Shown here: in pieces, positions 192 to 64,000 of the stretch
How positions within the stretch are numbered: the first letter of the stretch is position 1
How the letters are laid out: every line of letters starts with the position of its first letter
Assembly: GCA_044226015.1 (NCBI GenBank)
Contig: JBGAHS010000003.1
Location: forward strand, 480,001-544,000
Source: Candidatus Obscuribacteraceae bacterium
Lineage (GTDB): Bacteria; Cyanobacteriota; Vampirovibrionia; Obscuribacterales; Obscuribacteraceae
Direction: 5' to 3'
Length of the DNA: 64,000 nucleotides
Made by a program: the position numbers and the translations under genes
Notes under the pieces: model-generated
Seen by the model: only the letters and a program-made list of their open reading frames with translations
Database searches by the model: none
Told to the model about the DNA's origin: nothing

Positions 192-221
192 TTGAAATTC
201 CCGGCCCCAGAGCACTAGGGT
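192..221 (+). promoter_or_regulatory. Cassette-type promoter TTGAAA-N18-TAGGGT
   Basis: Same spacing and -10 hexamer recur upstream of several GC-rich genes; a C-rich leader follows. Confidence 0.65.
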
Positions 222-463
222 GAGTCGTAACCCATTAACCCCTAGCCCGCAAACAAGAAACCCAGCGCCCAATACACGCAAGACCATTTCAGCACCCGGA
301 ACAAGCTACCAAGCTTGTGGAGGAGAAGTGTTCTTGCCTTTGGACTGTCGAAGTTTTGAGTCGGCGGTTTCTTAACTACGCACTCATCTCCTTTGGTGAG
401 TGTGGACCCCGTTGCGCCAATTTCGGCGGAGCGGAACTTTTGATGTCTCGGAAGGAGACCCTT

Positions 464-1654
464 ATGACCACTTCGAAATTGAAAATTGTGCACGGTGAAG
501 ACCTCCACCCTGCGCACCTCCGCAGAATCATCAAAGCGAGCGAAGAGTACACCCGTCGCGTCAACGAGTCCCGCATCGAGTATCCGGACCCTGACACCAT
601 CGACTTCAGCTCCGACGATGCGAAGGCCATCTACACCGTTCACCCGAACGGTTTCCTCACCAACGTCCTCGGCGTCAGCAACCGCGCGAAGCGCCCCGGC
701 GCCAGCGACGGCGGCAAGCCCAAGCTGCCCAACCCGCAGGTCGTCCTCAAGGAAGTCCAGAAGTACTACCAGGGCGTCCCCCTGGCCGGCATGACTGGCA
801 ACCTTGTGCTCGGCGAACTGAACGTCGAATTCGGCGATGCCCCCAAGGCGAAGTACTTCCGCGAGGCTTACGTCGAGATTCTCTCGCACCTGCACATCCT
901 CGCCGTCGAAGAAGTCGACTCGTCCTGGGTCGATTCGATGGTGCAGTTCATGCAGCAGTCCACCGGCGTGACCTACAAGGGCTTCACTTCGGTCGCCAAC
1001 ACGCGCAACCAGGCCGTGGGCATCCTCATCCACCCGCGCCTCCAGGTCCTGAAGGGACCGATCGAGTACGCTGAAGTCGGCAATGTCCAGGGCGTTCCCG
1101 ACCTGCGACCGGCCTACCGCGTCGACCTGAAAGACACCACCACCGGTGTCGAATTCTCGGTCACGGTCGTGCACCTGAAGAGCATGCGTGGTGGTCCGGC
1201 TGCGACGAGCGCCATCCGCTACAAGCAGCTGGAAATCCTGGCGCGCTTGCTCGGTCCGAACTACTCGGGCTTCGTCGTCGGCGACCTGAACTACATCCTG
1301 ACGGACAAAACCCTGAAGGATGGCGAGCCGATGAAGAACGCTGGCTACGAGCTGTTCGTGCCCGACGACACCACCGGCACGCACGCCATGGGGTCGCGCA
1401 TCGACGGCTGGTTCTACAAGAACCTGTCCCGCAAGTTCACCTTCTACAAGGTGCGGCAGTTCTTCGCGAACCCGCAGATCACCCGTGCCTTCACTGACCA
1501 CGGTCAGACTGAAGGTCAGCTCGTGCTCTGCGAAAGCCAGCTCGAAGTCGGCAAGCCCAACGCCGGCTGTCCGGGCGCGAATGACCAGACCGGCTCTTCG
1601 CAGGTGGTGCCTGTCGACCGTGTCGGCTTCAAGAAGCTGAACGACGACAAGTAA
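464..1654 (+). CDS. Endonuclease/exonuclease/phosphatase (EEP) domain protein; GC-rich cassette gene
   Basis: EEP motifs VEEV, VHLKS, GDLN, SRIDGWF, TDH; AAGGAG RBS before ATG 464; strongly C/G-ending codons. Confidence 0.8.
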   Translation: MTTSKLKIVHGEDLHPAHLRRIIKASEEYTRRVNESRIEYPDPDTIDFSSDDAKAIYTVHPNGFLTNVLGVSNRAKRPGASDGGKPKLPNPQVVLKEVQKYYQGVPLAGMTGNLVLGELNVEFGDAPKAKYFREAYVEILSHLHILAVEEVDSSWVDSMVQFMQQSTGVTYKGFTSVANTRNQAVGILIHPRLQVLKGPIEYAEVGNVQGVPDLRPAYRVDLKDTTTGVEFSVTVVHLKSMRGGPAATSAIRYKQLEILARLLGPNYSGFVVGDLNYILTDKTLKDGEPMKNAGYELFVPDDTTGTHAMGSRIDGWFYKNLSRKFTFYKVRQFFANPQITRAFTDHGQTEGQLVLCESQLEVGKPNAGCPGANDQTGSSQVVPVDRVGFKKLNDDK

Positions 1655-1667
1655 ACCGTTCCCCTCG

Positions 1668-1716
1668 AACGCAGGATGTATGGCCCAAAAGGCTGTGCAT
1701 CCTGCGTTTCTTTTTT
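1668..1716 (+). terminator. Intrinsic terminator
   Basis: Stem AACGCAGGATGTATGGCC/GGCTGTGCATCCTGCGTT plus T tract. Confidence 0.8.
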
Positions 1717-1726
1717 CAACCCGATC

Positions 1727-1743
1727 TACTATAGCGATTCGTA
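1727..1743. repeat. TACTAY-N5-RTAGTA family palindrome (TACTAT AGCGA TTCGTA)
   Basis: About 10 bp after the EEP-gene terminator; recurrent motif. Confidence 0.7.
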
Positions 1744-5461: not shown

Positions 5462-6433
5462 GTGTCCAAGATCAAAGAGCGGCTGCTCAAGTGGCTTTTA
5501 AGCCCATTTTTTCATCCGATTGTGTCAATGCCAGGAAAATCTTTTTCTGGAAATTTTGAGCCACTCAATACGGAAGAAGAAATCAGCAAACAAGAGCTAA
5601 AGGCGCATATCACCGAGCTTTCAGTCAATATTCAAAGTAGATTTATTGGAACGATCGGACAAGAACAGTCCGCACGTTACATTGAGTCTAGCTTGCGCAA
5701 GAGCGGTTACGAACCGGTTTCCCAGAGCTTTAGTGTCGGAGACATATCCCTCAGAAATATAGAAGCAACATTGCCCGGAACTAAAAATCCCGAAAAAACA
5801 ATTATCGTAGGTGCGCATTACGACACAGTTGCCGGAACTCCGGGAGCAGATGACAACGCAAGCGGAGTGGCAGCACTTTTACATCTGGCAAGATTGTTCA
5901 AACAGACACCGACAGGTCTAAGTCTAAAGTTCGTTGCCTTTTCAAATGAAGAGACGGCACTCTACTCCAGCATGGGAAGCTACTTTTATGCGCAACGCTG
6001 TCACGAACAGCAAGAGCATATAGCTGGAATGTATTCATTAGAAATGCTCGGTTATTATTCAACAAGAGAAAAATCACAGGCTTATCCCGAGCCTTTCAAT
6101 CTCTTTTATCCGACCGTTGGGAATTTCATAGCATTTGTTGGCAACAGCAAAGCACGCCCCTTCCTAAAAGACAGCATTAGCTTATTCAGACAAAACTGCA
6201 ATTTTCCGTCAGAAGGATGCGCTGCACCCGACTGGATGAGCGATGCCAACCGCTCAGACCACTGCAGCTTTTGGCGATTTGGATACCCTGCGCTTATGGT
6301 TACTGACACTTCGAATTTCCGAAATAAGCACTATCACGGACCCCAGGACTCTATTCTCACTCTCGACTTAAACAGCATGTCACGAGTGGTTCGAGGTCTG
6401 GAAAAGATGATTCGGGAAATAGCCAAATCGTGA
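5462..6433 (+). CDS. M28 family metallopeptidase
   Basis: VGAHYDT, PGADDNASG, NEE, SLEMLGY, RSDH, YH motifs. Confidence 0.9.
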   Translation: MSKIKERLLKWLLSPFFHPIVSMPGKSFSGNFEPLNTEEEISKQELKAHITELSVNIQSRFIGTIGQEQSARYIESSLRKSGYEPVSQSFSVGDISLRNIEATLPGTKNPEKTIIVGAHYDTVAGTPGADDNASGVAALLHLARLFKQTPTGLSLKFVAFSNEETALYSSMGSYFYAQRCHEQQEHIAGMYSLEMLGYYSTREKSQAYPEPFNLFYPTVGNFIAFVGNSKARPFLKDSISLFRQNCNFPSEGCAAPDWMSDANRSDHCSFWRFGYPALMVTDTSNFRNKHYHGPQDSILTLDLNSMSRVVRGLEKMIREIAKS

Positions 6434-6454: not shown

Positions 6455-6471
6455 TACTATGGCTCATAGTC
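6455..6471. repeat. TACTAY-N5-RTAGTA family palindrome (TACTAT GGCTC ATAGTC), orphan copy
   Basis: 11/12 match to consensus arms; no adjacent GC-rich gene. Confidence 0.5.
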
Positions 6472-6649: not shown

Positions 6650-7678
6650 ATGAATCACGACAAACAACTTATTCTGAGTACTCAATCGTACACAGCATGG
6701 GCTGCACGATTTCATACATTGACTGAAATGGAGCTTGGAGAAATCCAACGCAAAGACTTTCCCGATGGTGAACACTACCAGCGCATCGTGACCCCCGTAG
6801 ACGGCAGAAAAGTGCTACTAATCTCTGGCACAATAAATGATCGCGAAACACTCGAACTTTTCGATCTTGCCAATGCCATTGTAGACGGTGGCGCATCACG
6901 TTTGCGTGTGATTCTTCCATATTTTGGCTACTCCACCATGGAAAGGGCTGTGCGAGCCGGAGAAGCAGTCAAAGCGAAGTATCGCGCCCGCTTACTTTCA
7001 AATGGACTTCCACGTGCACCTTTAGGCAATCGGTTTTACATGCTCGACCTTCACTCTGAGGGAATTCCTCAGTATTTTGAAAACGGCATACAAGCAACGC
7101 ACATTTATGCCAAATCAATCGTGATGAAAGTGGCAAAACGACTCTCTACCGAGTTTGGTCCGCTGGTTTTAGGCACTCGGCAGATGGAACTGTCACAAGA
7201 CCGACCTGTTCCATTTGTGCTTGCCTCGACGGATGCCGGGAGAATGAAATGGGTGGAATCACTCGCCAGAGATATGGGTGTCAGCCCCGCTTTCGCTTAT
7301 AAGGAGCGTATTGACGGAGCCACAACTGTTTCCCTGGGAATTTCTGGACCGGTGAAAGACAAATTCGTAGTCATATATGATGACATGATTCGCACGGGAA
7401 GCTCCTTAATGAACGCAGCAAGAGCCTACCTTGAAGCCGGTGCCACTGGGGTGGCAGCCATGGCAACTCATGCACTTTTCCCAGGTGAAGCTCTCGAAAA
7501 AATACGAGGCTCGGGTTTGTTCAAGCAACTCGTCGTAACAGACAGCCATCCACGTTCAAGAGAGCTAGAATCCGACTTTTTGCGAGTGGAATCTTGCGCC
7601 GAGCTATTCGTTCCGCATTTGACTGCTGACACCACCGAAGGTATCATCTTGAAGGAACTTAAACATGCCGTCCAATAA
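6650..7678 (+). CDS. prs: Ribose-phosphate pyrophosphokinase
   Basis: FPDGE, PYFGYS, LDLHS, DAGR, YDDMIRTGSS, ATHALF, VTDS motifs. Confidence 0.88.
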   Translation: MNHDKQLILSTQSYTAWAARFHTLTEMELGEIQRKDFPDGEHYQRIVTPVDGRKVLLISGTINDRETLELFDLANAIVDGGASRLRVILPYFGYSTMERAVRAGEAVKAKYRARLLSNGLPRAPLGNRFYMLDLHSEGIPQYFENGIQATHIYAKSIVMKVAKRLSTEFGPLVLGTRQMELSQDRPVPFVLASTDAGRMKWVESLARDMGVSPAFAYKERIDGATTVSLGISGPVKDKFVVIYDDMIRTGSSLMNAARAYLEAGATGVAAMATHALFPGEALEKIRGSGLFKQLVVTDSHPRSRELESDFLRVESCAELFVPHLTADTTEGIILKELKHAVQ

Positions 7679-9725
7679 AACACATTCTTTCGTGAAGGTG
7701 GGCACAGCTTCTCCACGAGTCAAAGTAGCCGATTGTTCCTACAATTCCAGTCAAATAATTGAATTACTGAAGCAAGCAGAGTCAGAAAAGATTTCGGTGC
7801 TCGTCTTTCCTGAGCTTTCAATCAGTTCATACACGTGTGCAGATTTATTTCAGCACGAAGTACTTTTGAATTCCAGCCTGGAGTCGCTGGCTCAGTTAGT
7901 TGAAGCAAGCAACAAGTTCTCTGGACTATTCTTTGTTGGCTTACCGCTCGTGGCGGACGACCAGTTATTCAATTGCGCTGTAGCCATCAATCAGGGCAGA
8001 ATTCTCGGAGTTGTGCCAAAATTATTCATTCCAAATTACAAAGAATTCTACGAGCGCCGCTGGTTTTCCTCAGGAAATAACACCTGCGTAGAAACTATAA
8101 ATCTCTTCGGAGAAGAAGTGCCCTTTGGCAAAAATTTGCTTTTTCAATCAAACCTCAATTCGAAACTTATAGTCGGGGTGGAAATTTGTGAAGACCTCTG
8201 GGTGCCCATTCCGCCAAGCTCTTACCAGGCACTAGCAGGCGCAACGATTTTGGTGAATCTTTCCGCCAGCAACGAACTCATCGGTAAATCTGGATATCGA
8301 AGGCAGCTGGTGTCGAATCAGTCGGCAAGATGCGTGGCAGCTTATGCGTATGCATCCTGCGGCACAGGTGAATCAAGCACCGATATTCTATTTAGTGGAC
8401 ATTGCCTGATCAGCGAAAACGGCACAACTCTTGCGGAAAACAAAAGGTTCGAAAGAGAAAACGTTCTTATTAGTACAGAGATTGACCTTGAGAGAATCAT
8501 GGTCGATCGAATTCGCCTCAATAGTTTCGCTGATAACAAAAGAGAATCCGCAACAGAGGCTCGATTTCGCAAGATTCCATTTAGGGACCCCAACCATTCT
8601 ATCAATCACTTAACTCGTTTCATCGATGCACACCCCTTCGTGCCACAGGGGCGAGAAACCCTTGCAGAGCGCTGCAACGAGATTTTCCACATTCAAGTTT
8701 CAGCTTTATGCAAGCGCATTGAACGTATTGGCGGTTCATCACTTGCGATAGGCGTATCTGGCGGATTGGATTCGACTCTATCCTTGCTTGTTTTATGCAA
8801 AGCCCTGGACCAACTAAAGATTCCGCGAACCCGCATCGAAGCCTTTACCCTACCAGGCTTCGGCACCACTGGAAGAACAAAAAACAATGCGCTTGCGTTG
8901 ATGGACCAACTTGGTATTAGAAGCAGAGAAGTTGATATCAGGCAATTATGCCTCGATGAATTTAAGGCACTGAAGCACAATCCTTTTGGCATTGCCATTG
9001 ACACAATCAGCAGCCTTGATGACTTGTCCAGTAAGCTTTCTCAGCTTCCAGAGAATAGTCAGGATTTAGTATTCGAAAATGTTCAAGCAAGAATGAGAAC
9101 TTCAATTCTTATGAATGCAGGCTTTGTTGTAGGAACAGGAGACCTCTCAGAACTGGCTCTGGGATGGTGCACTTATAACGCTGACCATATGAGCATGTAC
9201 AATCCCAACGCCAGTATTCCGAAGACTCTGGTCAAATTCCTTGTGGATTGGGCAGCCGATTTTGAATTCGACGACCAAGCCAGGAAAACCCTGAAAGACA
9301 TTGTAGCGACAGAGATATCACCTGAGCTGTTGCCGCCAGGAAAAGATGGGCAAATATCACAAAAGACCGAATCGAACGTAGGTCCTTATGAACTGAATGA
9401 CTTTATTCTGTTTCATGTTTTGCGATTTGGCATGTCACCGGAAAAGATATTCTTTCTGGCACAACAAGCCAGCTTCCATGAACCTTACAGCCGCGATGAT
9501 ATTGCAAAATGGTTGAAGTTATTTTTCAAGAGATTTTTTGCCAATCAATTTAAGCGCTCATGCCTTCCTGACGGACCCAAAGTGGGCTCTGTTAGCCTGT
9601 CTCCCAGAGGTGATTGGCGTATGCCGAGTGACGCCCAGGCAGAAGCATGGCTTGCATGGAACCCAGAAGATACGTTGGATTCCGTACAGCCAAAGGAATC
9701 AGTGAGCACAAGGAGACTGACATGA
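7665..9725 (+). CDS. nadE: Glutamine-dependent NAD+ synthetase
   Basis: Nitrilase-like domain (FPEL, K..PNY.EFYE.RWF, EICEDLW) plus SGGLDS, ENVQAR, GTGDLSE, QFKRS. Confidence 0.95.
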   Translation: MPSNKTHSFVKVGTASPRVKVADCSYNSSQIIELLKQAESEKISVLVFPELSISSYTCADLFQHEVLLNSSLESLAQLVEASNKFSGLFFVGLPLVADDQLFNCAVAINQGRILGVVPKLFIPNYKEFYERRWFSSGNNTCVETINLFGEEVPFGKNLLFQSNLNSKLIVGVEICEDLWVPIPPSSYQALAGATILVNLSASNELIGKSGYRRQLVSNQSARCVAAYAYASCGTGESSTDILFSGHCLISENGTTLAENKRFERENVLISTEIDLERIMVDRIRLNSFADNKRESATEARFRKIPFRDPNHSINHLTRFIDAHPFVPQGRETLAERCNEIFHIQVSALCKRIERIGGSSLAIGVSGGLDSTLSLLVLCKALDQLKIPRTRIEAFTLPGFGTTGRTKNNALALMDQLGIRSREVDIRQLCLDEFKALKHNPFGIAIDTISSLDDLSSKLSQLPENSQDLVFENVQARMRTSILMNAGFVVGTGDLSELALGWCTYNADHMSMYNPNASIPKTLVKFLVDWAADFEFDDQARKTLKDIVATEISPELLPPGKDGQISQKTESNVGPYELNDFILFHVLRFGMSPEKIFFLAQQASFHEPYSRDDIAKWLKLFFKRFFANQFKRSCLPDGPKVGSVSLSPRGDWRMPSDAQAEAWLAWNPEDTLDSVQPKESVSTRRLT

Positions 9726-10369
9726 GCAAAGGCAAACGCGCTCTCGGTCTGGTAGATCCCATAAATGGATTCGCCTCAGCAAACTTCGGTGACGGAAAAG
9801 GACACTTTGCTGAACTCCCAGTTCCGGGTGGCGAAGAAGTGGGACCAGCAATCGGAGCTTTGCAAGAAAGCGGACTATATGATTTTTGCTTTGCCGGAAT
9901 AGACCGGCATCCGATGGATATGTTCAATTTTGCAAGCCAATGTCCCGACAAAACTCCTTATAAAGATAAGGTAGAAGACCGTGATGGAAAGCTGGCAGTA
10001 GTTTATCCCGACCATTGCCAGGAAGGCACATGGAGTGCTGATTTTCTGCCCGGCATCCGCAAAGACCTTATTGACGAGATATTTCCGAAAGGAACCGAAA
10101 GAGACAAAGACAGCCATTCCGTCTGCGGCAATGTGGCACTTATTCCACGGCTTAAGGAGCTTGGAATAACCGATGTTGATCTTGTTGGACTGGTTTTCCG
10201 CATTTGTGTCGGCTTTTCAGCTATTGATCTTGCTAAAGCAGGGTTCAATGTAAGGGTTATAAAAGACTGCACACGTGACCTTGATATGGCGGAATTCACT
10301 TTTGTCATTGATCAAATGAATGAGCTTGGTGTCGAAATAATTGAACGGATGGATCTGCAGAAAGCTTAG
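9722..10369 (+). CDS. pncA: Nicotinamidase / isochorismatase family
   Basis: VDPINGF, D.HP, YPDHC, KG, GLVFRICV motifs; ATGA overlap with nadE. Confidence 0.75.
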   Translation: MSKGKRALGLVDPINGFASANFGDGKGHFAELPVPGGEEVGPAIGALQESGLYDFCFAGIDRHPMDMFNFASQCPDKTPYKDKVEDRDGKLAVVYPDHCQEGTWSADFLPGIRKDLIDEIFPKGTERDKDSHSVCGNVALIPRLKELGITDVDLVGLVFRICVGFSAIDLAKAGFNVRVIKDCTRDLDMAEFTFVIDQMNELGVEIIERMDLQKA

Positions 10370-10838: not shown

Positions 10839-11813
10839 ATGACGACCACCACCAACACCACCAAGGGCAAGACCGTGGACCAGAACAACGTCGTGAAGAC
10901 CGGTGACATGATCGAAAAGGCCATCGTCACCAGCAAGATCGACCGCGCTGTCGTTCTCAGCTACACCCACAACGGCCGCAAGTGCACCGGCGTGATGCAC
11001 GTCAGCCAGTTCCCCGCGCTCGAAATCCCGCAGCGTGACCAGATGTTCGCGGACACCAACGTGAACAGCGAGTTTACCAACCTCCTGGCGGAAGTCGAAC
11101 CCGCCGACAAGTCGAAGGGCCGCCGCTTCACCTCGGTTCGCCTCTCAGGCCGCGCCCCGCTCGAGCAGGCGGCCAAGGAGAAGCGCGAGCAGGCGCAGGT
11201 CCAACGCCGTCAGCGAGAGAGCGCCCATGCCGAAGCCGTGAAAGCGGTCCAAGGCAAGGTCGTGCTGGCGACCATCAAGGAACTCGCCTTCTCCAAGGAC
11301 CCGGAGACCAAGAAGGAGACCGACCACTGCTACGGCGCCTTCCTCAAGGTGGAAGTCGACGGCGTCGAAGTCAGCGGGCTGCTCCACACCAGCCGCATGA
11401 CGGGCAAGGCGCGAGTGGAACGCCTGCTGGAAGTGTTCGCTCAAGCTGGCACCCTGGAAGTCATCGCCACGCAGACGGACAAGGGGCTGTCTTTCTCGGA
11501 GCAGGACGTGCAGAAGGTCAAGGAAGAAGCCCATCAGCAGACGGAGCGTGAGTCCTTCCTGAGCTGCATCCGCGAAGCGCTGGCCAACGGCAACGCGGAC
11601 AAGATGCAATTCCCCGCCAAGGTGACGGAAAACCGACTGCCGTCGGGCGGTGGCGTCAGCTGTGTGGCCTGCGGCACTTGCGTGGAAGTCTCCTCGGAAG
11701 ACCTCGACATTCCGGCGAACAACATGCGTGGCAACGGTCACACCGTCAAACTGGTGCCCATCAGCGTCGAAGGCGAAGTCGTCCGCGCGAAGCGCTTCGT
11801 CAAAAGCAAGTAA
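10839..11813 (+). CDS. Divergent tandem S1-like RNA-binding domain protein; GC-rich cassette gene
   Basis: TGVMHVSQF and YGAFL...SGLLHTSRM resemble S1 motifs; strongly biased codons. Confidence 0.6.
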   Translation: MTTTTNTTKGKTVDQNNVVKTGDMIEKAIVTSKIDRAVVLSYTHNGRKCTGVMHVSQFPALEIPQRDQMFADTNVNSEFTNLLAEVEPADKSKGRRFTSVRLSGRAPLEQAAKEKREQAQVQRRQRESAHAEAVKAVQGKVVLATIKELAFSKDPETKKETDHCYGAFLKVEVDGVEVSGLLHTSRMTGKARVERLLEVFAQAGTLEVIATQTDKGLSFSEQDVQKVKEEAHQQTERESFLSCIREALANGNADKMQFPAKVTENRLPSGGGVSCVACGTCVEVSSEDLDIPANNMRGNGHTVKLVPISVEGEVVRAKRFVKSK

Positions 11814-11901: not shown

Positions 11902-11918
11902 TACTATGCTAAATAGTA
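11902..11918. repeat. TACTAY-N5-RTAGTA palindrome, perfect arms (TACTAT GCTAA ATAGTA)
   Basis: After the terminator, in a convergent intergenic region. Confidence 0.8.
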
Positions 11919-14259: not shown

Positions 14260-14276
14260 TACTATAGCAATACGTA
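14260..14276. repeat. TACTAY-N5-RTAGTA family palindrome (TACTAT AGCAA TACGTA)
   Basis: Beyond the terminator of the minus-strand serpin unit. Confidence 0.7.
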
Positions 14277-14364: not shown

Positions 14365-15516
14365 TTACGCCGCGTCGTTGATGTACCCGGCTAGATTGAT
14401 AGTTTCCGACAGGTCATCCCTGACAAAGAAGCAGAACGGTCGATCAGCCTTGAGATGGAACGGCATGCCGCCCATGATGAGCCGCGACTTCACACGCACC
14501 GTATTCGGTGCCGGCGGACCACTCAACAGCTCTGCCGCACGCTCATCGATTTCGACGACGGTCTTGTGCTTGAGCAGAAGCCGCTGGGCGTCAGCTCCTT
14601 TGAAGAGTGCTGAGAAGTCTGACGAGGAGGGGTCGAAGATTTCCTCCACGCCAAGTCGCTTCAAGCTATCGTTGAGAGTGCTTGAATACTCAGTTTTGAA
14701 GCGCGGAAGATGTACACGTCCAGGCGTGTTGCTGAACTTCTTGAACACCTTGCTGAATTCCATATCTGCAAGATCAGCTAGCATCCGCTCCATTCCGAAC
14801 TCGCCGTCAGCAAGTGGCAAAAACAGATATAGCGCGAAGCGCCCTGAGAGTCCATAAGGAAGCCTCACGGCTTGATATTTCAGGTTGCCGTGATAGTTGA
14901 AACTTCCTTGCTTGAACATCAGAGAGCATTTCGATTCGCTTCCATCTAGACGAAGGAAACGGCATCGCTCAGTCAGAGCCGGGTCAAAGCCCGAGGTCCA
15001 GAGACCATGAAAGTAGACAGCATCAAGCATTATCATCTGCGCACCATCACTGGCACCATCTAAGGCACTAATGACAGAAGGAATTTTTCCCTGTGTGCGC
15101 TGACAGATGAAAGAGTTCATCAGCAACGGCGCCGATGGATCATCGAGGTCGAGAAGCCTGATGCGAGCATCAAAGTATTGCTGGGCACGACTGGCGAACT
15201 TGGGCTTCACCGCCGAACCTCTGCAAGCGATGAGACTGCTTGCAAGTTGAAGGTCAAGCTCAGGCTCAGTAGTCAGAGACGCGCGCAATTGCGCAAATGT
15301 CTCGTTGATGCCTCTCAGACTGCGCCCAGGTCCGAACCCGAGTGCCGAAGCAGTTTCCCTGCGGGCAGAGCCACGACTTCCATTGAGAATCAGCCCCAGA
15401 GCAAGAGACACGCTCAAAGGGGAAACCACTACGTTGTGCCCAGGGTGCAGCTCGCGCTCGGCTCGAAGAAGAGCGAGAGCAAACTCATCTGTGACACCAG
15501 TGTTGTGTGTATTCAT
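14365..15516 (-). CDS. Serpin family protein
   Basis: NVVVSPLSV, AVYFHGLW...F, LPY, LPRFK, ADRPF.F; GGAGG RBS. Confidence 0.9.
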   Translation of the reverse strand: MNTHNTGVTDEFALALLRAERELHPGHNVVVSPLSVSLALGLILNGSRGSARRETASALGFGPGRSLRGINETFAQLRASLTTEPELDLQLASSLIACRGSAVKPKFASRAQQYFDARIRLLDLDDPSAPLLMNSFICQRTQGKIPSVISALDGASDGAQMIMLDAVYFHGLWTSGFDPALTERCRFLRLDGSESKCSLMFKQGSFNYHGNLKYQAVRLPYGLSGRFALYLFLPLADGEFGMERMLADLADMEFSKVFKKFSNTPGRVHLPRFKTEYSSTLNDSLKRLGVEEIFDPSSSDFSALFKGADAQRLLLKHKTVVEIDERAAELLSGPPAPNTVRVKSRLIMGGMPFHLKADRPFCFFVRDDLSETINLAGYINDAA

Positions 15517-15549
15517 ATAACCTCCAGGTTGAGACAGCGACACAGCCGT

Positions 15550-16116
15550 TTACTCGGCTGCTTCGCATTTGAGACTGTTGCCATCAAAGCTGATCACCAG
15601 ACATTCCCCGACGCGCTCCCCGCCGAAGCAGAACCATTTGCGACTGAAACGAAATGCGTGGAATGGTCTAGCAACAGCGATTTCGACCAGCGCAAGCTCT
15701 TCGTTTCCGAAGAGATCATCAGTGCTTCGGCGTATGCGAACATGGACACAATTTCCAAGTTCGTACTGAACTCTACTGAACGCACCACGACTGACATCAA
15801 GCCATACAAGAGCAGACTTGCACTCAACCTCACGTTCTGGAAGCAGCCAGAGTGTGCCGTTGGGACGCCGTGATATGGAAGCTCGGTTGATCACAACAGA
15901 ATCGACATCCTTAGCAGGATGTCGGCAGGTCGCGTAGAGTTCAGAGCTGAGAAAAAGGTTTACCCCCGGAATGACCTCGCAATCAGGCTTCGCCTGATGC
16001 ACCACAATGCCTTCTTCTGCCGTTGGATAAACCTCCGGAACGACGAAAGACACCGGGCGAAAGAGAGAAGGAACACTGAGAATCTGGCGCGAAGCCACTA
16101 AGCTGAAGCATTTCAT
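15550..16116 (-). CDS. Hypothetical protein, upstream of serpin in the same unit
   Basis: ORF with GGAGG RBS before ATG 16116; no recognisable motif. Confidence 0.6.
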   Translation of the reverse strand: MKCFSLVASRQILSVPSLFRPVSFVVPEVYPTAEEGIVVHQAKPDCEVIPGVNLFLSSELYATCRHPAKDVDSVVINRASISRRPNGTLWLLPEREVECKSALVWLDVSRGAFSRVQYELGNCVHVRIRRSTDDLFGNEELALVEIAVARPFHAFRFSRKWFCFGGERVGECLVISFDGNSLKCEAAE

Positions 16117-16834: not shown

Positions 16835-16851
16835 TACTACAACCAGTAGCA
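16835..16851. repeat. TACTAY-N5-RTAGTA family palindrome (TACTAC AACCA GTAGCA)
   Basis: About 15 bp beyond the DUF4139-gene terminator. Confidence 0.7.
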
Positions 16852-16911: not shown

Positions 16912-18402
16912 TTAGCGAACGCGCTCCTTCACCTTGTATTGCACAGCCCCTTGTGCCGATTTCGGAATCTGAACCTTGCTTTGAGCTTGGTTCACATTTT
17001 CCTTTAAGGTCCACGGGGCTCCGAACGACTGATCGGCGGGAACATTGATTTCCACGAGAACTTCAACGTCTTTATCCCGCTTGTAGTTGAAAACATTGAT
17101 CTTGTAAGTGTTTTCTTCCCAGACTTCCCGGTATGCACCAGGAGCTGGCTGACTGGCGCCAGGCACGGCCAGGGGCTGCTTCTGCACCAGAACGCGCTCC
17201 CATTTCAGCTCAGAAGAGCTGCCGATAACCATCTGGAAAACCTCATCAACAGCCTTGGCTCCAAGCTCAACACTGCCCACCATTTGAACAGGAGAGTTGG
17301 CGCTTGCTCGTTGATAGACCTTCACTGAACCAGCTGGAAGGGCGATTCCAAGCCCATTTTTGTCGCAGTTATCCACCTCGAGACGTATCGAAACTTCTTT
17401 CTTACCCTTGCTGTAGTAAGAAATACTGTTGGCGGGAATGAAGTATTCGCGCTTAACAGCCACGTCATGGGCAGCGAAGAGTCGAACGTGCCGAGACTGA
17501 CCCTCGTTGAGAGTCACCACCCCTGGTAGCGTATAGGTGGTCTGGTCACCAAGAGAGTCTACAGTAGCAGCACCTCCGGCAGGAGCTGAGGCTACCTGCA
17601 GCCCACGAGCGGCGTACATGCGTCCGTCACCCATGTCACCGGTGCTTACTTTCGAAGGAAGCAGCGAAATTCTGGCACCTTCGAAGGAAACACCAGAATT
17701 GTTTTGCAAGGAAACCGTCGTTTCCCAGCTCTGAATGACGCTCTTGTCGTCATTGTAGACGACGGTATGTCCAGCACTCCATGTGAGTCCATCAGTTTCG
17801 TACATGAAGCGGAACTCGTAATCGCCAGCGACGTCGGCAAAAGCTTCAACAACGAGTGAAGCACGAGATGACACATCTCCCGGCAAACGGTCAAACGTTG
17901 CACCGACAACCGGAACGACTACAGCCTGTCCAGCAGCGGTCTTCAAGACCACGGTACTGCCAGCGGTGCTCAACAGCTCACCTACGACATGATCACCACT
18001 GGCGGTGACCACTCCGAGCTGCTGTCCAATCGACGATGCGAGCAGCTTGTCCAGGCTCAGATTCGCCGGTTGGTAAGTCGACGACAAGTAAGTGAATGAA
18101 CGCTCTGGTCCCTTTTTGAGAAGCCGCGAACTCAGCGGAACGAAAGAGCGGTCACGGAACTGTGAGGGAATGTCCGAGAGGGTAATGAGGTTGCGCCCGA
18201 CCTCGAGGTGTACCTTCCGAGTCTCCTCGACCTGGGCGTAGCGTTCACCGTAAATCGTGAGATAGAGATCACCCACCCGCTGAACAGGCGCAGCAGCAGC
18301 ATTCTTGCTGGGTGGGGCGGCGTTCGCCATGGACGGCTGGACAAAAGACGTGCAGCTGACGGACAGGAAACCGAGGGCGACGATTGCGAACAACTTTCTC
18401 AT
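16912..18402 (-). CDS. Secreted DUF4139-like protein
   Basis: Signal peptide; LTIY....A.V.E.R, Y.T.GLTW, N.SG..F, LG.ALPAG.VKVY patterns. Confidence 0.75.
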   Translation of the reverse strand: MRKLFAIVALGFLSVSCTSFVQPSMANAAPPSKNAAAAPVQRVGDLYLTIYGERYAQVEETRKVHLEVGRNLITLSDIPSQFRDRSFVPLSSRLLKKGPERSFTYLSSTYQPANLSLDKLLASSIGQQLGVVTASGDHVVGELLSTAGSTVVLKTAAGQAVVVPVVGATFDRLPGDVSSRASLVVEAFADVAGDYEFRFMYETDGLTWSAGHTVVYNDDKSVIQSWETTVSLQNNSGVSFEGARISLLPSKVSTGDMGDGRMYAARGLQVASAPAGGAATVDSLGDQTTYTLPGVVTLNEGQSRHVRLFAAHDVAVKREYFIPANSISYYSKGKKEVSIRLEVDNCDKNGLGIALPAGSVKVYQRASANSPVQMVGSVELGAKAVDEVFQMVIGSSSELKWERVLVQKQPLAVPGASQPAPGAYREVWEENTYKINVFNYKRDKDVEVLVEINVPADQSFGAPWTLKENVNQAQSKVQIPKSAQGAVQYKVKERVR

Positions 18403-20189: not shown

Positions 20190-20219
20190 TTGGTTCAGCC
20201 CCCTGCGTTGTCGTAGGGT
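20190..20219 (+). promoter_or_regulatory. Cassette-type promoter TTGGTT-N18-TAGGGT
   Basis: Family spacing and -10. Confidence 0.65.
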
Positions 20220-20419: not shown

Positions 20420-21373
20420 ATGGACGGACATGATGGACATGGCCCAGACCACGGAGGTGGTGCCGGTCATGCATTCGACCTCGGCGCTCTCGCCGCTGGT
20501 CTCGGTGGTCACGGCCACGCTCACGGTTCGCACAGCCACAGCGTCGGACACGCGCCTGGTGCCACTCATGGGCACTCGGGTTGGGCTTTCGGCATTGCTT
20601 CGGCAGCGCTGTCGCACTCAGGTGTGATGGACTCCGTTGCGACGCGCGAATGCACCGACGCCCAGATCGGCGTGCGCCTGCCCGGCGTCGTGCTCAGTGA
20701 CAGGACCATGCAGCTTCTGGTCTGGCCGCATGGACTCATCGACACGCAAGCGCTCTTCCGCACCATCGCCAGCCGCCACAAGCTGCTGAGCCTGTCGCGC
20801 AAAACGCCTGCCACTGTCGCCTCGAACCGCCAGCACAAGACCCTGCTCGACACCAAGGTCTTCGACGGCCCCGGCAAAAACTCTCAGCCGAGTGCCAAGT
20901 ACGAAGGCGCCACCGGAACGACCACCGTGTGGAACGAGTTCTGGCAGCTGCCGACACAGCGCGCCTGGTGGAGTTCCAAGACCGTCGATGATGGACTGCC
21001 CCTGGGCTCCCATCTCGTCATCATGGGTTACACCTGGTTCTACGCTGAGACCGGCGACTACGAGACGCGCGTCGCTATCACGGTTACCAAGCCCAACACT
21101 TGCGTAGCCGGAGAGTGGAAGCCCGTCGATGAAGACGCGGTCAGACGGCACCTCGCTACCGCTCGTTCGGTCGCACTGGAGCTTTTCGACCAGCTGTCGA
21201 AGGTCAATTCGGCGGAGTATTCCAAGGTGATGCGTGAGCTTCAGAACCACGACCGGACTCCGGTTTGCGGACCTCTGGGCTGCGAACTTCACCACGCCCC
21301 GACGCACGTCGCTGCGCCTCGATTTCTGCCTCGCCATAGCGGTGGGGACATCATCCGCGACGAAATGCGATGA
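20420..21373 (+). CDS. Hypothetical protein with His/Gly-rich N-terminus; GC-rich cassette gene
   Basis: AAGGAG RBS; MDGHDGHGPDH...HGHAHGSHSHS. Confidence 0.7.
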   Translation: MDGHDGHGPDHGGGAGHAFDLGALAAGLGGHGHAHGSHSHSVGHAPGATHGHSGWAFGIASAALSHSGVMDSVATRECTDAQIGVRLPGVVLSDRTMQLLVWPHGLIDTQALFRTIASRHKLLSLSRKTPATVASNRQHKTLLDTKVFDGPGKNSQPSAKYEGATGTTTVWNEFWQLPTQRAWWSSKTVDDGLPLGSHLVIMGYTWFYAETGDYETRVAITVTKPNTCVAGEWKPVDEDAVRRHLATARSVALELFDQLSKVNSAEYSKVMRELQNHDRTPVCGPLGCELHHAPTHVAAPRFLPRHSGGDIIRDEMR

Positions 21374-21460: not shown

Positions 21461-21477
21461 TGCTACTTGCTATAGTA
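21461..21477. repeat. TACTAY-N5-RTAGTA family palindrome (TGCTAC TTGCT ATAGTA)
   Basis: Single site between two convergent cassette genes. Confidence 0.7.
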
Positions 21478-24065: not shown

Positions 24066-24102
24066 TTCTTCTTCAACAACCTGAAATCTCGGAGGAGACA
24101 TA

Positions 24103-42151: not shown

Positions 42152-43189
42152 TTAGACCTTCGGCAGCGGGCAGGGTCCGCCGTTCATGCGCTCGAGCTGA
42201 TACACGCGGTCAGCAACCGGGGGGTGGGTCAGCTGGAGGTACTTCCAGAACGCGACGAGCTTCTGCCAGAGCGACTTCGGAGCCGGCTCTTCCGCGATGG
42301 CGTCGAAGATCGGATCGATGGTCATGCAGACGCGCATGACACGATACGCTTCAGCATCACGCCCCTTCGGACGGTGCTTCTCGACGTAAGCGACGAGCTT
42401 GAGCAGACCGCTGGCCAGGGCGCAGGGGTTGCCGGTGAAGTGCGCACCCGTGGCGTCGGCGCCGGATTCACGCGAACGGACCACGAACATCTGGATGAGC
42501 TTGGTCATCTGCTGGGTCGCCCAGAAGATGACGTACATCAGGATGTTCGAGACGATGGCCGGCAGCACGCGCTGTTCGACACGAATGCCGAGCAGACGCT
42601 TGAACCAGCTCAGCGTGCCGATCCACGCGCGAACACCACTGTCCACGACGATGAAGAAGAACGACGACATGATCGAGATGAGCGAGTTGATGCCGACGTC
42701 GTAGTTGGCGACGTGGCCCAGCTCATGCGCGAAAACAGCCTCGATCTCTTCGTCGGTCATACCGCACTCGAAGAGTCCGGCGGTGGCGGCGACGACAGCC
42801 TTGCGGTGAATCGGGCCCGTGGCGAAAGCGTTCGGCAGCGGGTTGTCCGAGATGTAGACCGGCGGCTTGAACTTGAGCCCCGACTTCTTCCACACGCGGT
42901 CGACGATCTCCAGGAGGCGAGCGTCGCGAGGGTTGTTGGGGTCGGCGGGGGTGCACTTCATGATGTACAGCGAGATCTTGTCGCTGAACCACCAGCCGGC
43001 GACGGTGAGAAGCGGGTAGGCGACCCAGAAGCCGAGCTTGAACTCGAACGACGACTGGAACAGGTAGAGGGCAGCGGTGATGAGGCCGCCCATCATGAGG
43101 AAGCCAGCCAGGGTCATGGCCCAGGTCTCCAGGCGTCGACGACCGATGCCAGGAAGCTCCTCAAAGGGGGTTACGCGATGACGAGACAT
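42152..43189 (-). CDS. htpX: Zinc metalloprotease HtpX (M48); GC-rich cassette gene
   Basis: PNAFATG, AVFAHELGH, SRE..AD, THPP...R; GAGGAG RBS. Confidence 0.88.
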   Translation of the reverse strand: MSRHRVTPFEELPGIGRRRLETWAMTLAGFLMMGGLITAALYLFQSSFEFKLGFWVAYPLLTVAGWWFSDKISLYIMKCTPADPNNPRDARLLEIVDRVWKKSGLKFKPPVYISDNPLPNAFATGPIHRKAVVAATAGLFECGMTDEEIEAVFAHELGHVANYDVGINSLISIMSSFFFIVVDSGVRAWIGTLSWFKRLLGIRVEQRVLPAIVSNILMYVIFWATQQMTKLIQMFVVRSRESGADATGAHFTGNPCALASGLLKLVAYVEKHRPKGRDAEAYRVMRVCMTIDPIFDAIAEEPAPKSLWQKLVAFWKYLQLTHPPVADRVYQLERMNGGPCPLPKV

Positions 43190-43388: not shown

Positions 43389-43418
43389 ACCCTAGTACGC
43401 CCTGCTCTTGATAAGCAA
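43389..43418 (-). promoter_or_regulatory. Cassette-type promoter TTGCTT-N18-TAGGGT
   Basis: Family -10 and spacing. Confidence 0.65.
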
Positions 43419-52042: not shown

Positions 52043-55876
<3,834 letters not shown>

Positions 55877-62054: not shown

Positions 62055-62211
62055 ACTGCAATCTAAGAAAAATCAGTCAACGTGGAGAGCATTCCTGGAA
62101 TTCAGGGATGTTCTTTACTTGATATTTCACACCGAATTGCTAAGCTATTCTCGCTGACACGCTTAATTTACAGGGCTGTAGAATATAACTCAGCAGTTTC
62201 TTGGATAACAC

Positions 62212-63204
62212 ATGGACTCTAGTAAACAACAACAGAGCGGCGCAAAAGACTATTACTACATTCTCGGCATATCTCCGGATGCAAGTCCCCAGCAGATTCA
62301 AGCCGCCTTTCAGGAGCTGTATGACAAATACGGTCCTCATGTGACTTACACGAGCCAAGACTCCGACGCCATGGTGAAGCTCTACAAAGACATCACCGAG
62401 GCCTGGGAAACGCTGGGCGACCCGCAAAAGAGAGCAGAATACGACCAGGCGCAGATGCCACTTTTGCAAAAAAGTCATTTGCGAAACCTCTGGGGAAAGC
62501 TTACAGGAGCAAAAACTGGCGAAGAACCAAAACTAAAAGATGATCTTGCTGATACTCACACAAGCGTCGAGGTTACTCTGAGAGAAGCCGTCAAAGGATC
62601 ACGCAAGCAAGTCAAGGTCGAGGATTTCAAACCTTGTGAAGCCTGTCTCAGCAAAAAGCCAGTTGATCGAATCAAGTGCTTGCAATGCCATGGTTCCGGC
62701 CAGGTTAAAGCCGACCGGGTAGAAGTTTTGGAAATAGCTCCGGGAACCTTCGAAAAACAAGAGATTAAGCTACTCGGAAAAGGTCGCTATGATGCCAGGC
62801 TTCGTCGGCACGCAGATTTAGTCGTGGAGGTGCAATTCCAGCAGCACCCATTTTTTAGCGTTCACGGAAAGGATGTTTCCTGTACAGTTCCGGTCAATCT
62901 GTACGAAGCTATTCTCGGAGCCGAAATCGAAGCACCAACGCCGGCCGGCAAGGTAATGATGAAAATTCAGCCTCTCACACAGAGAGGACGCGTCTACCGA
63001 CTAAAAGGTCTGGGCTTGGGAGGCGGAGACTTGCTTCTATCCATAGAAGTAGTAATTCCCTCGCAACTGCATGCCGATGAAGTAGAACTCTTCAGAAGAT
63101 TGCAGAAAGTGTCCTCCCAACCTAACCCGAGGACAGATTTATTTGGCAAGTTGCAGGCCTACAATCAGGCTCAACAAATTCCTGGGTCAGATCAAAATAG
63201 ATAG
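62212..63204 (+). CDS. DnaJ/CbpA-like protein with non-canonical J domain
   Basis: DYY.ILG, AWETLGDP.KR..YD, DnaJ C-terminal domain; HPD replaced by YGP. Confidence 0.8.
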   Translation: MDSSKQQQSGAKDYYYILGISPDASPQQIQAAFQELYDKYGPHVTYTSQDSDAMVKLYKDITEAWETLGDPQKRAEYDQAQMPLLQKSHLRNLWGKLTGAKTGEEPKLKDDLADTHTSVEVTLREAVKGSRKQVKVEDFKPCEACLSKKPVDRIKCLQCHGSGQVKADRVEVLEIAPGTFEKQEIKLLGKGRYDARLRRHADLVVEVQFQQHPFFSVHGKDVSCTVPVNLYEAILGAEIEAPTPAGKVMMKIQPLTQRGRVYRLKGLGLGGGDLLLSIEVVIPSQLHADEVELFRRLQKVSSQPNPRTDLFGKLQAYNQAQQIPGSDQNR

Positions 63205-63588
63205 AAAATCGCATCATTCTAATGGGCCAATTGAAAATTGAAAAGGATTCGCTCGAAAGGTAGCCAAGCGCTAGCGGGCGGCTGCGAGATGACACAAAAA
63301 CACTGTAGCCAAGAGGTCCGAGGTTAGCGCTTTTGTTAAGCTTCCCAGAACACGCTCACGAGGCTGCGCTAAGGGTGAAAACCCTTACCATCAGGGAATC
63401 TTAGCGACTTGTAATAATTACAGGCCACGGCACTTACTACCCCAAAAAGCACCCCTTTAATAACTACCGTTACACAAGTCAAGATAAACATTTGCAAGGC
63501 TAGAGGGCGTTTCGTCAAAAGCTTCATCAGCATAGGATACGGGCTGTCAAGAGTTATGAGTGCAGGTCAAACAGCACACTAATGATCG

Positions 63589-63618
63589 TTGAACCCATAA
63601 CGGCGTATGCACTAGGGT
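63589..63618 (+). promoter_or_regulatory. Cassette-type promoter TTGAAC-N18-TAGGGT
   Basis: GCACTAGGGT identical to 212-221. Confidence 0.7.
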
Positions 63619-63820
63619 CAGGTACACCCTTTTGTTCCCTCTAACCGCGAACCCACAAGCTTCTAACCCCGCAAAACAAAGAAGAAAACACCGAGAAGAG
63701 ACCCTGTTCAGTCCCGCGAACAAGAGTAGCTTCTGGCTTCTTTCCTAGCGATAGGAATTCCCAGCCGAACACATATCGTGAACGGCTCTTCTAACTTTCG
63801 CAAAAGCGAAGGAGACCAAC

Positions 63821-64000
63821 ATGACTACCAATGACAAGTCCATCCGGGACGGAGTGCTGCGCGCTATGTCCGTCAGCGCTCTCGGAACCCGCGAGAGTTT
63901 CTTAACGTATTCGGGCATCCTTCCGGTCAAGCTGCCGGACGGTACCCGATTCATCATCTACCCCGACACGCACATCCCGGCGCATCATCGGCGCCTCTTC
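63821..64000 (+). CDS. Partial GC-rich cassette gene, possible calcineurin-like metallophosphoesterase (runs off the window)
   Basis: AAGGAG RBS; MTTNDK...FIIYPDTHIP (DxH motif). Confidence 0.55.
   Translation, partial: MTTNDKSIRDGVLRAMSVSALGTRESFLTYSGILPVKLPDGTRFIIYPDTHIPAHHRRLF

Follow-up and report, generated by a model that had tools for sequence, protein, structure and literature searches.

The window (the whole stretch of DNA that was analysed, 64 kb in length) contains twelve units that a first-pass annotation had singled out among the backbone genes, and all of them are real open reading frames at the coordinates given there, according to our own gene calling, with domains assigned by Pfam (and searched also against NCBIfam for 10839 and 16912-18402). 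Every listed unit has the palindrome TACTAY-N5-RTAGTA, a 17-bp site that stands about 10 nt behind the U-run of the terminator, convergent units sharing one copy (21461 and 29935), and the backbone terminators after fbaB and at 55905 carry none. Seven copies occur in the window at one mismatch at most (versus 0.04 in shuffles), and a weight matrix places ten (1727, 6455, 11902, 14260, 16835, 21461, 24633, 29935, 36550 and 42020); the palindrome at 67086, beyond the window, belongs to the last unit. No Rfam match was found in the window.

The first unit, on the plus strand, is composed of a predicted promoter (TTGAAA-18-TAGGGT, 192..221), a gene for an EEP-family nuclease (464..1654, GC3 0.85) and a palindrome (1727..1743) 10 nt past the terminator U-run, which is kept in place in G002, G004 and G007. 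It is followed by a decayed unit that codes for an M28 peptidase (5528..6433, plus strand), with a GC3 of 0.44 here versus 0.63-0.67 in congeners, and that has retained the palindrome behind it (6455..6471). The prs-nadE-pncA operon (6650..10369, plus strand) has low GC3 and lacks a palindrome here; it has high GC3 in G004, G005 and G029, with a palindrome behind the operon in G005 and G029, so that it is likely a former member of the class, class membership and palindrome being lost together. The orphan gene at 10839..11813 (plus strand, GC3 0.85), annotated at first as S1-like, has no Pfam or NCBIfam match; it lies beside nadE, with GC3 0.92-0.98, in four congeners, and the arms of its palindrome (11902..11918) are kept in G002, G004 and G007, the spacer and flanks are not.

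Two minus-strand units with intermediate GC3 come next: a serpin gene and an orphan (14365..16116; 0.58 and 0.51 here, 0.66-0.69 in G002), with a palindrome at the 3' end (14260..14276), and a unit at 16912..18402 (GC3 0.58; palindrome at 16835..16851) that is missing at that place in G002 and whose assignment to DUF4139 found no match in either family database. An orphan gene (20420..21373, plus strand, GC3 0.73) behind a predicted TTG...TAGGGT promoter (20190..20219, plus strand) converges on a gene with a weak M17 N-terminal domain (21579..22196, minus strand, GC3 0.67), and the palindrome at 21461..21477 is common to both. A predicted TAGGGT -10 element (23359..23364, plus strand) lies 170 nt upstream of two orphan genes (23529..24549, plus strand, GC3 0.71 and 0.69; palindrome at 24633..24649), a unit that in G002 is extended at its 3' end by two extra genes. 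Another convergent pair, with a palindrome between the units (29935..29951), is formed by two small genes (29217..29734, plus strand, GC3 0.62 and 0.79) and by the genes of an amino-acid permease (GC3 0.70) and a Bax-inhibitor-1 protein (0.82) at 30036..32385 on the minus strand, the latter with a predicted promoter (TTGATT...TAGAGT, 32581..32610, minus strand). The remaining units are an orphan gene (36660..37037, minus strand, GC3 0.65; palindrome at 36550..36566), a gene for an HtpX/M48 peptidase (42152..43189, minus strand, GC3 0.85) with a predicted TTGCTT...TAGGGT promoter (43389..43418, minus strand) and a palindrome (42020..42036) kept in place in two closer relatives, and the start of a three-gene unit (63821..64000, plus strand, GC3 0.83, 0.82 and 0.79), with a predicted TTGAAC...TAGGGT promoter (63589..63618, plus strand) and its palindrome 3 kb past the window.

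The biased codons attributed to the units are present in most of them (GC3 0.62-0.85, backbone about 0.45), but less so in 14365-16116 and 16912-18402, where GC3 is only 0.51-0.58. The shared promoter is the weakest part of the proposed frame: TTG-N17-21-TA(G/A)(G/A)(G/C/T)T is found upstream of 464, 20420, 30769, 42152 and 63821, loosely upstream of 21579, and as a lone TAGGGT upstream of 23529, but nothing clear precedes 10839, 14365, 16912, 29217 or 36660.

Codon usage of the gene class in the origin zone

The system formed by the palindrome and the codon class is much larger than the window. With the class defined by a GC3 of at least 0.62, 239 of 523 genes belong to it in a zone of about 600 kb around dnaA (plus one 60-kb block) of this genome (G000), compared with 20 of 5,144 elsewhere. 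The zone contains both dnaA and the switch in GC skew; ribosomal-protein and rRNA genes are outside. The class codes for peptidases, lipases, beta-oxidation enzymes, membrane-stress proteins, uptake systems and orphans, and includes three paralogous lipid operons. The strong ribosome-binding sites and terminators described for the units are confirmed (Shine-Dalgarno sequences in 68% of 211 class genes versus 23% of 4,349 others; terminators at 77% of 79 unit ends versus 30% of 250), and intercistronic hairpins are common to class units. Class leaders are only about 5 points richer in GC, and a de novo motif search on leaders yielded compositional motifs only. Because the origin zone differs in composition, caution is needed in binning.

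The mosaic could be an assembly chimera or what remains of a single giant phage or plasmid that had integrated, an idea to which the 60-kb block, with its co-oriented genes and many small orphans, and the three lipid operons lend themselves. It is largely refuted and extremely improbable, given that two metagenomes that were assembled separately and differ by SNPs show the same mosaic, as does a single-contig genome of another genus, that 75 of 78 class orphans lack a PHROG match, the other three matching enzyme families, and that the codon bias persists instead of fading. None of 197 Pfam-scanned class genes is a structural or replication gene of a phage.

Four-fold sites have a GC of 0.72-0.78 in each member of a genome pair, even though they are 77-83% saturated. 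The bias looks translationally selected: the S index is 1.65 for the class versus 0.62 for ribosomal-protein genes, which are outside the class codon usage (GC3 0.46; shifts correlated at 0.34). Local mutation bias or GC-biased conversion, acting at the units or starting from the palindrome in place of translational selection, would agree with the shift of all codon boxes to G or C and with the GC of the spacers within units (0.51 versus 0.44), but it is very improbable, because the shifts differ between codon boxes, 2-fold in some and about 40-fold in others (the smallest in Glu, Gly and Arg CGY), low-GC3 genes starting 50-200 bp from a palindrome show no rise (0.53 or less in 26 of 31), GC3 does not fall away from the palindrome in long operons, and it drops in the first ten codons.

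In codon usage the class resembles itself across genera more than it resembles GC-rich backbones, with one codon optimum, which avoids A-ending codons, across backbones of GC3 0.43-0.71. The same optimum whatever the backbone GC is also what delivery would produce, that is, origin-zone DNA or mRNAs passed into a prey or host cell to whose ribosomes and tRNAs the genes are tuned; the canonical Shine-Dalgarno sequences, promoter and terminators, the location of ribosomal-protein and rRNA genes outside the zone and the digestive cargo point the same way, and DNA transfer into prey has been proposed for Vampirovibrio, of the same taxonomic class (PMC4451040). Delivery nevertheless seems quite improbable, since VirB4 was found in only 2 of 67 genomes and not in G000, the uptake systems and beta-oxidation serve the owner cell, and class and backbone genes alike avoid GGCC, a restriction site; the accessible literature yielded no report of predation by Obscuribacter.

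Placement, polarity and inheritance of the palindrome

The palindrome is found at 50 of 79 high-GC3 unit ends, versus, for ordinary ends, 9 of 133 inside the zone and 19 of 3,084 elsewhere, so that the shared system proposed in the first-pass annotation stands: its motifs are far from equally frequent around low-GC3 genes, the difference being 60-fold. In G000, 43 of 47 strong sites are in the origin zone, and the lone high-GC3 gene C6:70402, outside it, also has a palindrome, as does the 60-kb block at its 3' end (one copy). Only the 7-bp spacer is enriched when spacer lengths are compared (29 versus 0.5 expected). The pattern alone is weak genome-wide (43 at one mismatch or fewer versus 11-30 for other spacers), hence the signal resides in the location of the sites; the core motif is not depleted outside the zone (6 versus 7.4 expected). 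A T at -12 is present in 92% of 61 unit-facing sides and missing on the opposite side. The sites do not have the layout of bidirectional sigma-70 promoters (a TAnnnT -10 points into the unit at 14 of 43 sites and away from it at 15 of 43, and the extended -10 TGn occurs at 3 of 43), although TACTAT is a -10 element at rRNA and lexA promoters, and single sites may therefore fire as promoters.

The asymmetric form of the palindrome reads towards the origin at 95 of 115 sites in eight relatives, with G082 as the sole exception (4 of 10), and the arm variants of G000 are oriented by replichore (25 versus 6 of 58). The sites surround the origin, not the terminus: about 60 are spread over about 600 kb round oriC, with equal asymmetric extent in G000 and G061. 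The clustering near dnaA recurs in other genera of the family. In G061, 46 palindromes were counted in 260 kb of the origin zone and none in 140 kb outside, and the same clustering was seen in samples of G012, G092 and G101. G084 has neither palindromes nor the codon class. In other families of the taxonomic class the pattern is at background level, and the few matches in many fragmented genomes of this family are equally compatible with loss and with incomplete binning. The hosts are sludge and soil bacteria. The origin confinement, the polarity, the phage sites described below and the decayed unit at 5528-6433 are additions to the first-pass annotation.

These features would also be expected of a centromere-like anchor or condensation site (of the RacA/ram type, replacing a missing ParABS system), only the origin part being captured in a special cell type; the units would be at the origin because only that part is captured, and the palindromes behind strong terminators because these spots are free of transcription. 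ParB is present in only 5 of 67 family genomes and absent from G000, and B. subtilis ram sites are likewise dense near the origin (PMC6593407). We consider the anchor unlikely: most ordinary terminators in the zone lack the palindrome, the U-run spacing is fixed, palindromes occur behind high-GC3 genes outside the zone, phage copies lie on promoters and ribosome-binding sites, and G084 does without them. Pfam scans of 233 ordinary zone genes gave no RacA-like candidate.

Arms of 5 bp around a 7-bp spacer resemble recombinase core sites, and the palindrome could be the target of site-specific integration adding units on either side, 3' end first and about 10 bp off (integron-like or by target-primed retro-insertion). 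The fixed distance of the U-run would fit, as would the facts that some units relocate between congeners, that site-adjacent genes differ, that one inversion has palindromes at both ends and that synteny breaks at 24 of 30 palindromes versus 39 of 71 boundaries between ordinary transcription units, an excess that is modest (p=0.024). Integron-like capture, one of the two models of the first-pass annotation, has nevertheless found little support, and integration of either kind is improbable: units keep their location in congeners whose proteins are 55-85% identical, attC boxes are found in 0 of 119 spacers, genes do not accrete at the 3' end (4 of 14 versus 8 of 39), arms are conserved at filled sites, and named homologues of class proteins all come from this lineage. 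No integrase is encoded in the window, as already remarked, and neither an integrase nor a reverse transcriptase was found there or among the 197 class genes scanned; the reverse transcriptases of G000 are outside the zone and share no pattern, and none of its 19 tyrosine-recombinase matches (with a model that is not IntI-specific) is in a unit. A search for a co-distributed recombinase was negative, the only one in the zone having no catalytic residues, not tracking the palindrome and being missing from G061 and G001, which both have palindromes. Excision joints were absent from the contigs of two metagenome assemblies, contigs being known to drop rare variants, and contig depth gave no ranking of the units. 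A search for related loci gave nothing for the hydratase or the portal of G000.

Phage sites and a predicted roadblock-bounded programme

The palindrome is also present in phage DNA (36 sites in 7 of 8 stretches versus about 1.6 expected), where two unrelated groups of temperate phages carry it over promoters and ribosome-binding sites: 7 of 36 sites overlap a TTGAC-17-TA promoter, with a register that varies from site to site (random windows do so in 0.5% of cases), and a ribosome-binding site with its start lies within 9 of 36. For this reason it is likely the operator of a putative host protein. Searches identified neither this protein nor the sigma factor, and no second NusG-family gene, as in the antitermination regulons of RfaH, LoaP and UpxY, was found (one copy in 58 of 59 genomes, zero in one); motifs for Rho and FtsK, a weak test, gave no convincing gene. 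Several candidate binders were rejected. The catalytically degenerate XerC-like protein of the zone (C6:407767) has no match at E of at most 1e-40 in G061, G001, G016 or G110, and weaker homologues exist in G084, which has no sites. A PC4-like gene lies behind the palindrome in two phages, yet the host PC4 gene has no site. As for LexA, the palindrome scores at most 5.5 at lexA, recA and uvrA, and lexA promoters carry ATAC-N4-GTAT, the family LexA box, in 29 of 30 genomes.

The reading that we prefer, with about an even chance of being correct, is that the units are resident origin-zone genes forming a stage-specific programme of very high output, with ends bounded by a roadblock protein. One group-1/2 sigma factor would read TTGA-17/18-TAGGGT promoters, and a dimeric host protein would bind the palindrome as a roadblock, stopping the polymerase on the U-run and shielding neighbouring housekeeping genes. 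The direction of the replication fork would set the asymmetry of the palindrome, temperate phages would use its binder as an operator-binding sensor of host state, and the position at the origin would raise gene copy number or ease access while the cell is in that state. The programme would break down protein, fat and nucleic acid and maintain the membrane; our guess, from the cargo, is a stage of feeding on biomass or of recycling in starvation.

Of the two earlier models, a dedicated regulon with a boundary-binding protein is the better fit. The U-run ends 9-12 nt before the palindrome, which fits the distance between release point and protein site in roadblock-assisted termination (10-14 nt). 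The strict promoter is present in 12 of 70 high-GC3 leaders versus 13 of 2,687 others genome-wide, a share of the class that counts against the programme. The programme is further weakened by the 60-kb block, far from the origin, and by the EEP nuclease gene, which has GC3 0.77-0.90 in 22 of 30 family loci but a palindrome directly behind it in only four of them, and a GC3 of 0.39 in G035 although the pattern is frequent there. The 29 of 79 unit ends without a palindrome count against it as well, as do the lack of polarity in G082, the relocation of some units between congeners and the inversion that ends at two palindromes. Codon selection above that of ribosomal proteins is odd for any programme and also tells against this one, and the roadblock model by itself does not explain the confinement to the origin.

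A broader and more tentative reading, possible rather than probable, is a two-part genome, in which the origin domain would be a second transcriptome for a cell state or compartment with only that DNA and ready-made ribosomes; a new protein would end transcripts and organise the origin instead of ParABS, and phages would read it to time lysis.

What is at stake is a bacterial chromosome on which two classes of genes interleave, one of them tied to the origin and under stronger codon selection than ribosomal proteins, in the uncultured sister group of photosynthetic cyanobacteria. The data point to a life stage not recognised so far in bacteria often found in wastewater and drinking-water systems, to a new DNA-binding protein whose sites are polar with respect to the origin, in a family mostly devoid of ParB, and to a predicted natural system of roadblock termination. 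They also provide a testable gene list and motif, and the palindrome as a host marker for phages.

Comparison with known systems

No published description of an arrangement with this palindrome and codon class was found in a search that mostly covered the main text of open papers. Integrons share the unrelated cargo, the single 3' palindromic element per unit and the slow reshuffling, but the spacers within units here lack attC boxes and the long attC hairpin, and none of the tyrosine-recombinase matches of G000 is in a unit. Integron arrays, moreover, are promoterless tandem cassettes behind attI/Pc, whereas these units are dispersed on both strands, have their own promoters and terminators and are inherited in place. 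Forespore capture by RacA/ram in B. subtilis (PMC6593407) is similar in its many palindromes near the origin and in the special role of the origin region in a developmental state; here the palindromes are polar, stand at a fixed distance behind the terminators of one class and occur in phages, and no RacA-like protein was found. Control of temperate phages by a host repressor, as with LexA and GIL01 (PMC6182141), is similar in that phage late promoters are overlapped by sites for a protein that here is likely the host's, but our palindrome is not ATAC-N4-GTAT, is absent from SOS promoters and in its chromosomal copies marks 3' ends instead of promoters.

With the in vitro roadblock EcoRI E111Q the likeness is that a protein site lies 10-14 nt past the T-rich point of release, a bound roadblock halting the polymerase 14 nt upstream (bioRxiv 10.1101/100073). 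A natural counterpart in bacteria, with a sequence-specific roadblock at about 60 intrinsic terminators of a single regulon, was not found. Roadblock termination and polarity relative to replication are known from Reb1, TTF-I and mTERF and from polar fork barriers. Tus/Ter and RTP/Ter share the orientation by replichore, with the difference that these palindromes lie round the origin and not the terminus. Highly expressed genes have in common with the class the preference for TTC, TAC, ATC and AAC, the strong Shine-Dalgarno sequences and the position near oriC, but here the ribosomal-protein genes are outside the class and located elsewhere. MatP/matS, Noc, SlmA, KOPS and Ter are domain-restricted or polar chromosome motifs, and the palindrome resembles them as a motif of one domain oriented by the replichores; here, however, that domain is the origin, and the motif is tied to the gene ends of one class.

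A gene class around the replication origin

In the source genome (GCA_044226015.1, G000), a two-class codon model that we built called 6,459 genes (86% coding). All counts depend on these calls, among which some start positions and a small number of ORFs are in error. These calls, together with motif searches and Pfam, recover the twelve units with biased codons and a palindrome that the first-pass annotation described in the window, which spans C6:480001-544000. Most such units are transcription units of genes with a GC3 of at least 0.62, a class that comprises 239 of the 523 genes inside the zone around dnaA plus one 60-kb block, and 20 of the 5,144 outside, several of these 20 being repeat-derived miscalls. 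Class genes are located in contig C6 (395-853 kb), in C1 (1140-1287 kb) and in a solid block spanning the end of C8 and the start of C9. The C6 and C1 parts are likely contiguous, because their ends have a repeat in common. The GC skew switch coincides with dnaA (C6:816 kb), from which the zone extends about 420 kb on one side and 185 kb on the other, and the orientation of class genes relative to the forks is mixed (96 vs 92 genes). The C8/C9 block (~60 kb, C8:713657 to C9:38722) lies far from the origin, and its genes are co-oriented, all head-on to replication. It adjoins a pair of neighbouring 5,000-residue proteins with similar N-termini (C9:40468-71392). Tandem arrays of small membrane-protein pairs (GC3 0.83-0.91, without family match) are present at C6:644360-648196 and C9:17629-19309, and at C1:1208436-1223460 (stretch L045) a ThiF/E1-like enzyme is clustered with ubiquitin-sized small proteins and intermediate-GC3 orphans. 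Contig C2 (70 kb) has overlapping ends and is likely a circular plasmid or phage.

The codon bias persists, and it looks translational. In comparisons of G000 with two related genomes (G002 and G007), class genes show 77-83% saturation at four-fold sites, where GC is still 0.72-0.78. That a mutation bias explains the high GC3 is very improbable. The S index, calculated from Phe, Tyr, Ile and Asn codons, is 1.65 for the class vs 0.62 for ribosomal-protein genes, and class codon tables from four genera are closer to one another than to the GC-rich backbones. The EEP gene (window 464-1654, + strand) has a GC3 of 0.77-0.90 in 22 of 30 loci, the remaining ones being a longer paralogue (six) or lower (two, in G001 and G035). 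Genes are also able to leave the class, since prs-nadE-pncA is high in GC3 and followed by a site in G005 and G029, and is low in GC3 and lacks the site in G000. An array of 18 tRNA genes (C10:356333-358584) contains many for A-ending codons, those that the class avoids.

The palindrome and the architecture of the units

With one mismatch allowed, the 17 bp palindrome of the first-pass annotation (TACTAY-N5-RTAGTA) has 43 matches in G000, 35 of them in one region; 28 of these lie beyond the window, so that the clustering is independent of the 42 sites behind high-GC3 units used to train a weight matrix. This matrix finds 47 strong sites, 43 within the zone (7.1 vs 0.04 per 100 kb), and the core TAC(T/G)A-N7-T(A/C)GTA occurs 29 times in the zone vs 0.5 expected, and 6 times elsewhere vs 7.4 expected. 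The proposed link to high-GC3 genes holds: a site lies behind 50 of the 79 unit ends in the zone (none was found behind the other 29), and for ordinary ends the counts are 9 of 133 within the zone and 19 of 3,084 elsewhere. A site is also found behind the sole clear high-GC3 gene outside the zone, and the 60-kb block is closed on its 3' side by a single one; where units converge, one site is common to both.

Related genomes have the same arrangement. In G061, a single contig with dnaA at 2.83 Mb, the matches listed lie at 2.41-3.06 Mb with two outliers, and samples hold 46 sites in 260 kb inside, mostly behind high-GC3 units, and none in 140 kb outside; in G012, G092 and G101, 22 sites were found in 7 inside samples and none in 4 outside. 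That the whole pattern is an artefact is hardly credible. Among the matches listed, 95 of the 115 single-strand matches on the dnaA contigs of 8 relatives are oriented towards dnaA, these genomes being kin and not independent, and the tally excluding matches on both strands or on other contigs, a distant G061 site, sites at the G101 contig start and the genomes G016, G099 and G102. G082 is the exception (4 of 10 towards dnaA). In G000, the degenerate arm is on the origin side in 25 vs 6 of 58 sites. A centromere-like role for the palindrome is unlikely; in its favour, a search of 67 Obscuribacteraceae genomes, with sizes of up to 9 Mb, gave no ParB in 62 of them, and the ram sites of B. subtilis are likewise dense near the origin (PMC6593407). 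G000 has an SMC-sized gene. The pattern is at background level in other families of Vampirovibrionia, and G084 has a single pattern match; its 9 samples contained no site, nor was a high-GC3 class present near dnaA. This genome, which is without the system, has a GC-rich island without palindromes near dnaA (L134, C2:2.90-2.92 Mb).

The common promoter proposed for the units stood in part: TTGA-17/18-TA(G/A)GGT is enriched upstream of the class, usually at 140-330 nt, and its strict form is limited to 12 of 70 leaders (controls, 2/145 and 13/2,687). In G000, the -10 elements of tRNA promoters are of the TATAAT/TAGAAT type and the rRNA promoter reads TTGACA-17-TACTAT, so the class promoter is distinct in the middle of the -10. 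Sigma-70 region 2 has 17 matches in G000, none within the zone. A sigma-70-like gene of G092 (L141:6806-7633, GC3 0.80) ends near a palindrome and is a candidate class regulator in that genus. Shine-Dalgarno sequences precede 68% of class genes vs 23% of other genes, hairpins between genes within units reach z<-3 in 78% vs 21% of controls (n=100 each), and strong terminators are found at 77% of the 79 unit ends vs 30% of 250 sampled ordinary ends. The end of the U-run is 9-12 nt upstream of the site, and the distance from stem to site is variable (7-35 nt, median 18). RNA polymerase is stopped 14 nt upstream of a DNA-bound roadblock (10.1101/100073).

Mobility and cargo

In congeners, the backbone order is mostly conserved, and units relocate, acquire or drop genes; one inversion has both ends at sites. 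Junctions are broken at 24 of 30 sites, 38 of 56 5' ends, 39 of 71 positions between ordinary transcription units and 12 of 53 inside units, so that the excess at sites is modest. The integron-like capture suggested earlier has little in its favour. Against it, the 119 intergenic spacers inside units contain no attC boxes, and no excision joints were seen in the contigs of two studies over window 10400-30300 (one with SNPs; either may be the genome's source). Integrase, reverse transcriptase and sigma factor are absent among 197 class proteins and the window, and it is quite unlikely that the palindrome is the target of an integration system. A XerC-like protein with degenerate catalytic residues is encoded at C6:407767-408678 (L048:9907-10818), and its family, some members of which are intact, is present in 35 of 104 family genomes.

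The cargo survey covered 197 of the 208 class proteins of at least 100 aa, plus the window proteins. It includes peptidases and related proteins (thermolysin-type M4 (4), S41 (4), FtsH (3), M48 (3), M17, M29, M3, M50, TldD/PmbA and ClpX-like), lipid genes (patatins (7), acyltransferases, acyl-CoA synthetases (4), hydratases, acyl-CoA dehydrogenases (4), thiolase), and nucleases, GH25, permeases, vWA/MoxR operons, PrkA-DUF444-SpoVR, SPFH and Bax inhibitor. About half of the class proteins have no family; NCBIfam gave none for 77 of 78 orphans and PHROG none for 75 of 78. As leads, one orphan tested may be PspA-like and another TPM-domain-like. Where homologues of unit proteins are named, their label is Obscuribacterales or Obscuribacteraceae. 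Expression of the class genes in another cell is improbable. In its favour, DNA transfer into prey has been proposed for Vampirovibrio (PMC4451040); against it, VirB4 is missing in 65 of 67 genomes, and the text consulted on Obscuribacter (PMC4040986) mentions no predation. The window also encodes a MerR-HTH protein whose tail is long and of low complexity (24650-26152) and two large proteins of 566 and 1,277 aa without Pfam match (50291-55876).

Phage sites, interpretation and known systems

Outside the zone, G000 (on C11) and G002 each have a prophage with sites. Prophages and viral relatives hold 36 sites in 7 of 8 distinct stretches vs ~1.6 expected (L298 has none; L305 repeats L299), in two phage groups, portal and capsid searches with one of which did not recover the other. 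Seven of the 36 overlap a sigma-70 promoter, in varying registers, and nine cover a ribosome-binding site, a placement that resembles that of operators. The prophages (G000 C11 ~1160-1197 kb, L293 and L294; G002 C14, L212, L213 and L295) are of two distinct podovirus-like types, and both encode a small resolvase at the late-region edge; in one of the two phage groups a PC4-like gene lies behind a palindrome. That the palindrome is a regular bidirectional promoter was rejected after a -10 element test, with PMC12825309 as the comparison. That it is the LexA box was rejected by comparison with SOS genes and lexA promoters, since the box of the family differs. In 29 of 30 genomes, a conserved ATAC-N4-GTAT palindrome lies across the -10 upstream of lexA (L306-L335) and is likely this box. 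Host LexA is described as sitting on promoters of phage GIL01 (PMC6182141), a placement like that seen here, although the palindrome is not a LexA box.

Beyond the observed class, its place, architecture, polarity, maintenance and phage use, a host dimer would bind the palindrome and, behind unit terminators, would serve as a roadblock, and the units would constitute a stage-specific high-output programme. Roadblock and programme taken jointly stand at about even chances, and are partly compatible with a centromere-like role. Feeding or recycling would be our guess for the stage, and any reason for the origin location would likewise be a guess. The genome organisation is real, spread across the family and, as far as titles and abstract openings go, undescribed. 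The known systems with which it is to be compared are matS, KOPS, Ter/RTP, Reb1/TTF-I and the features of integrons.
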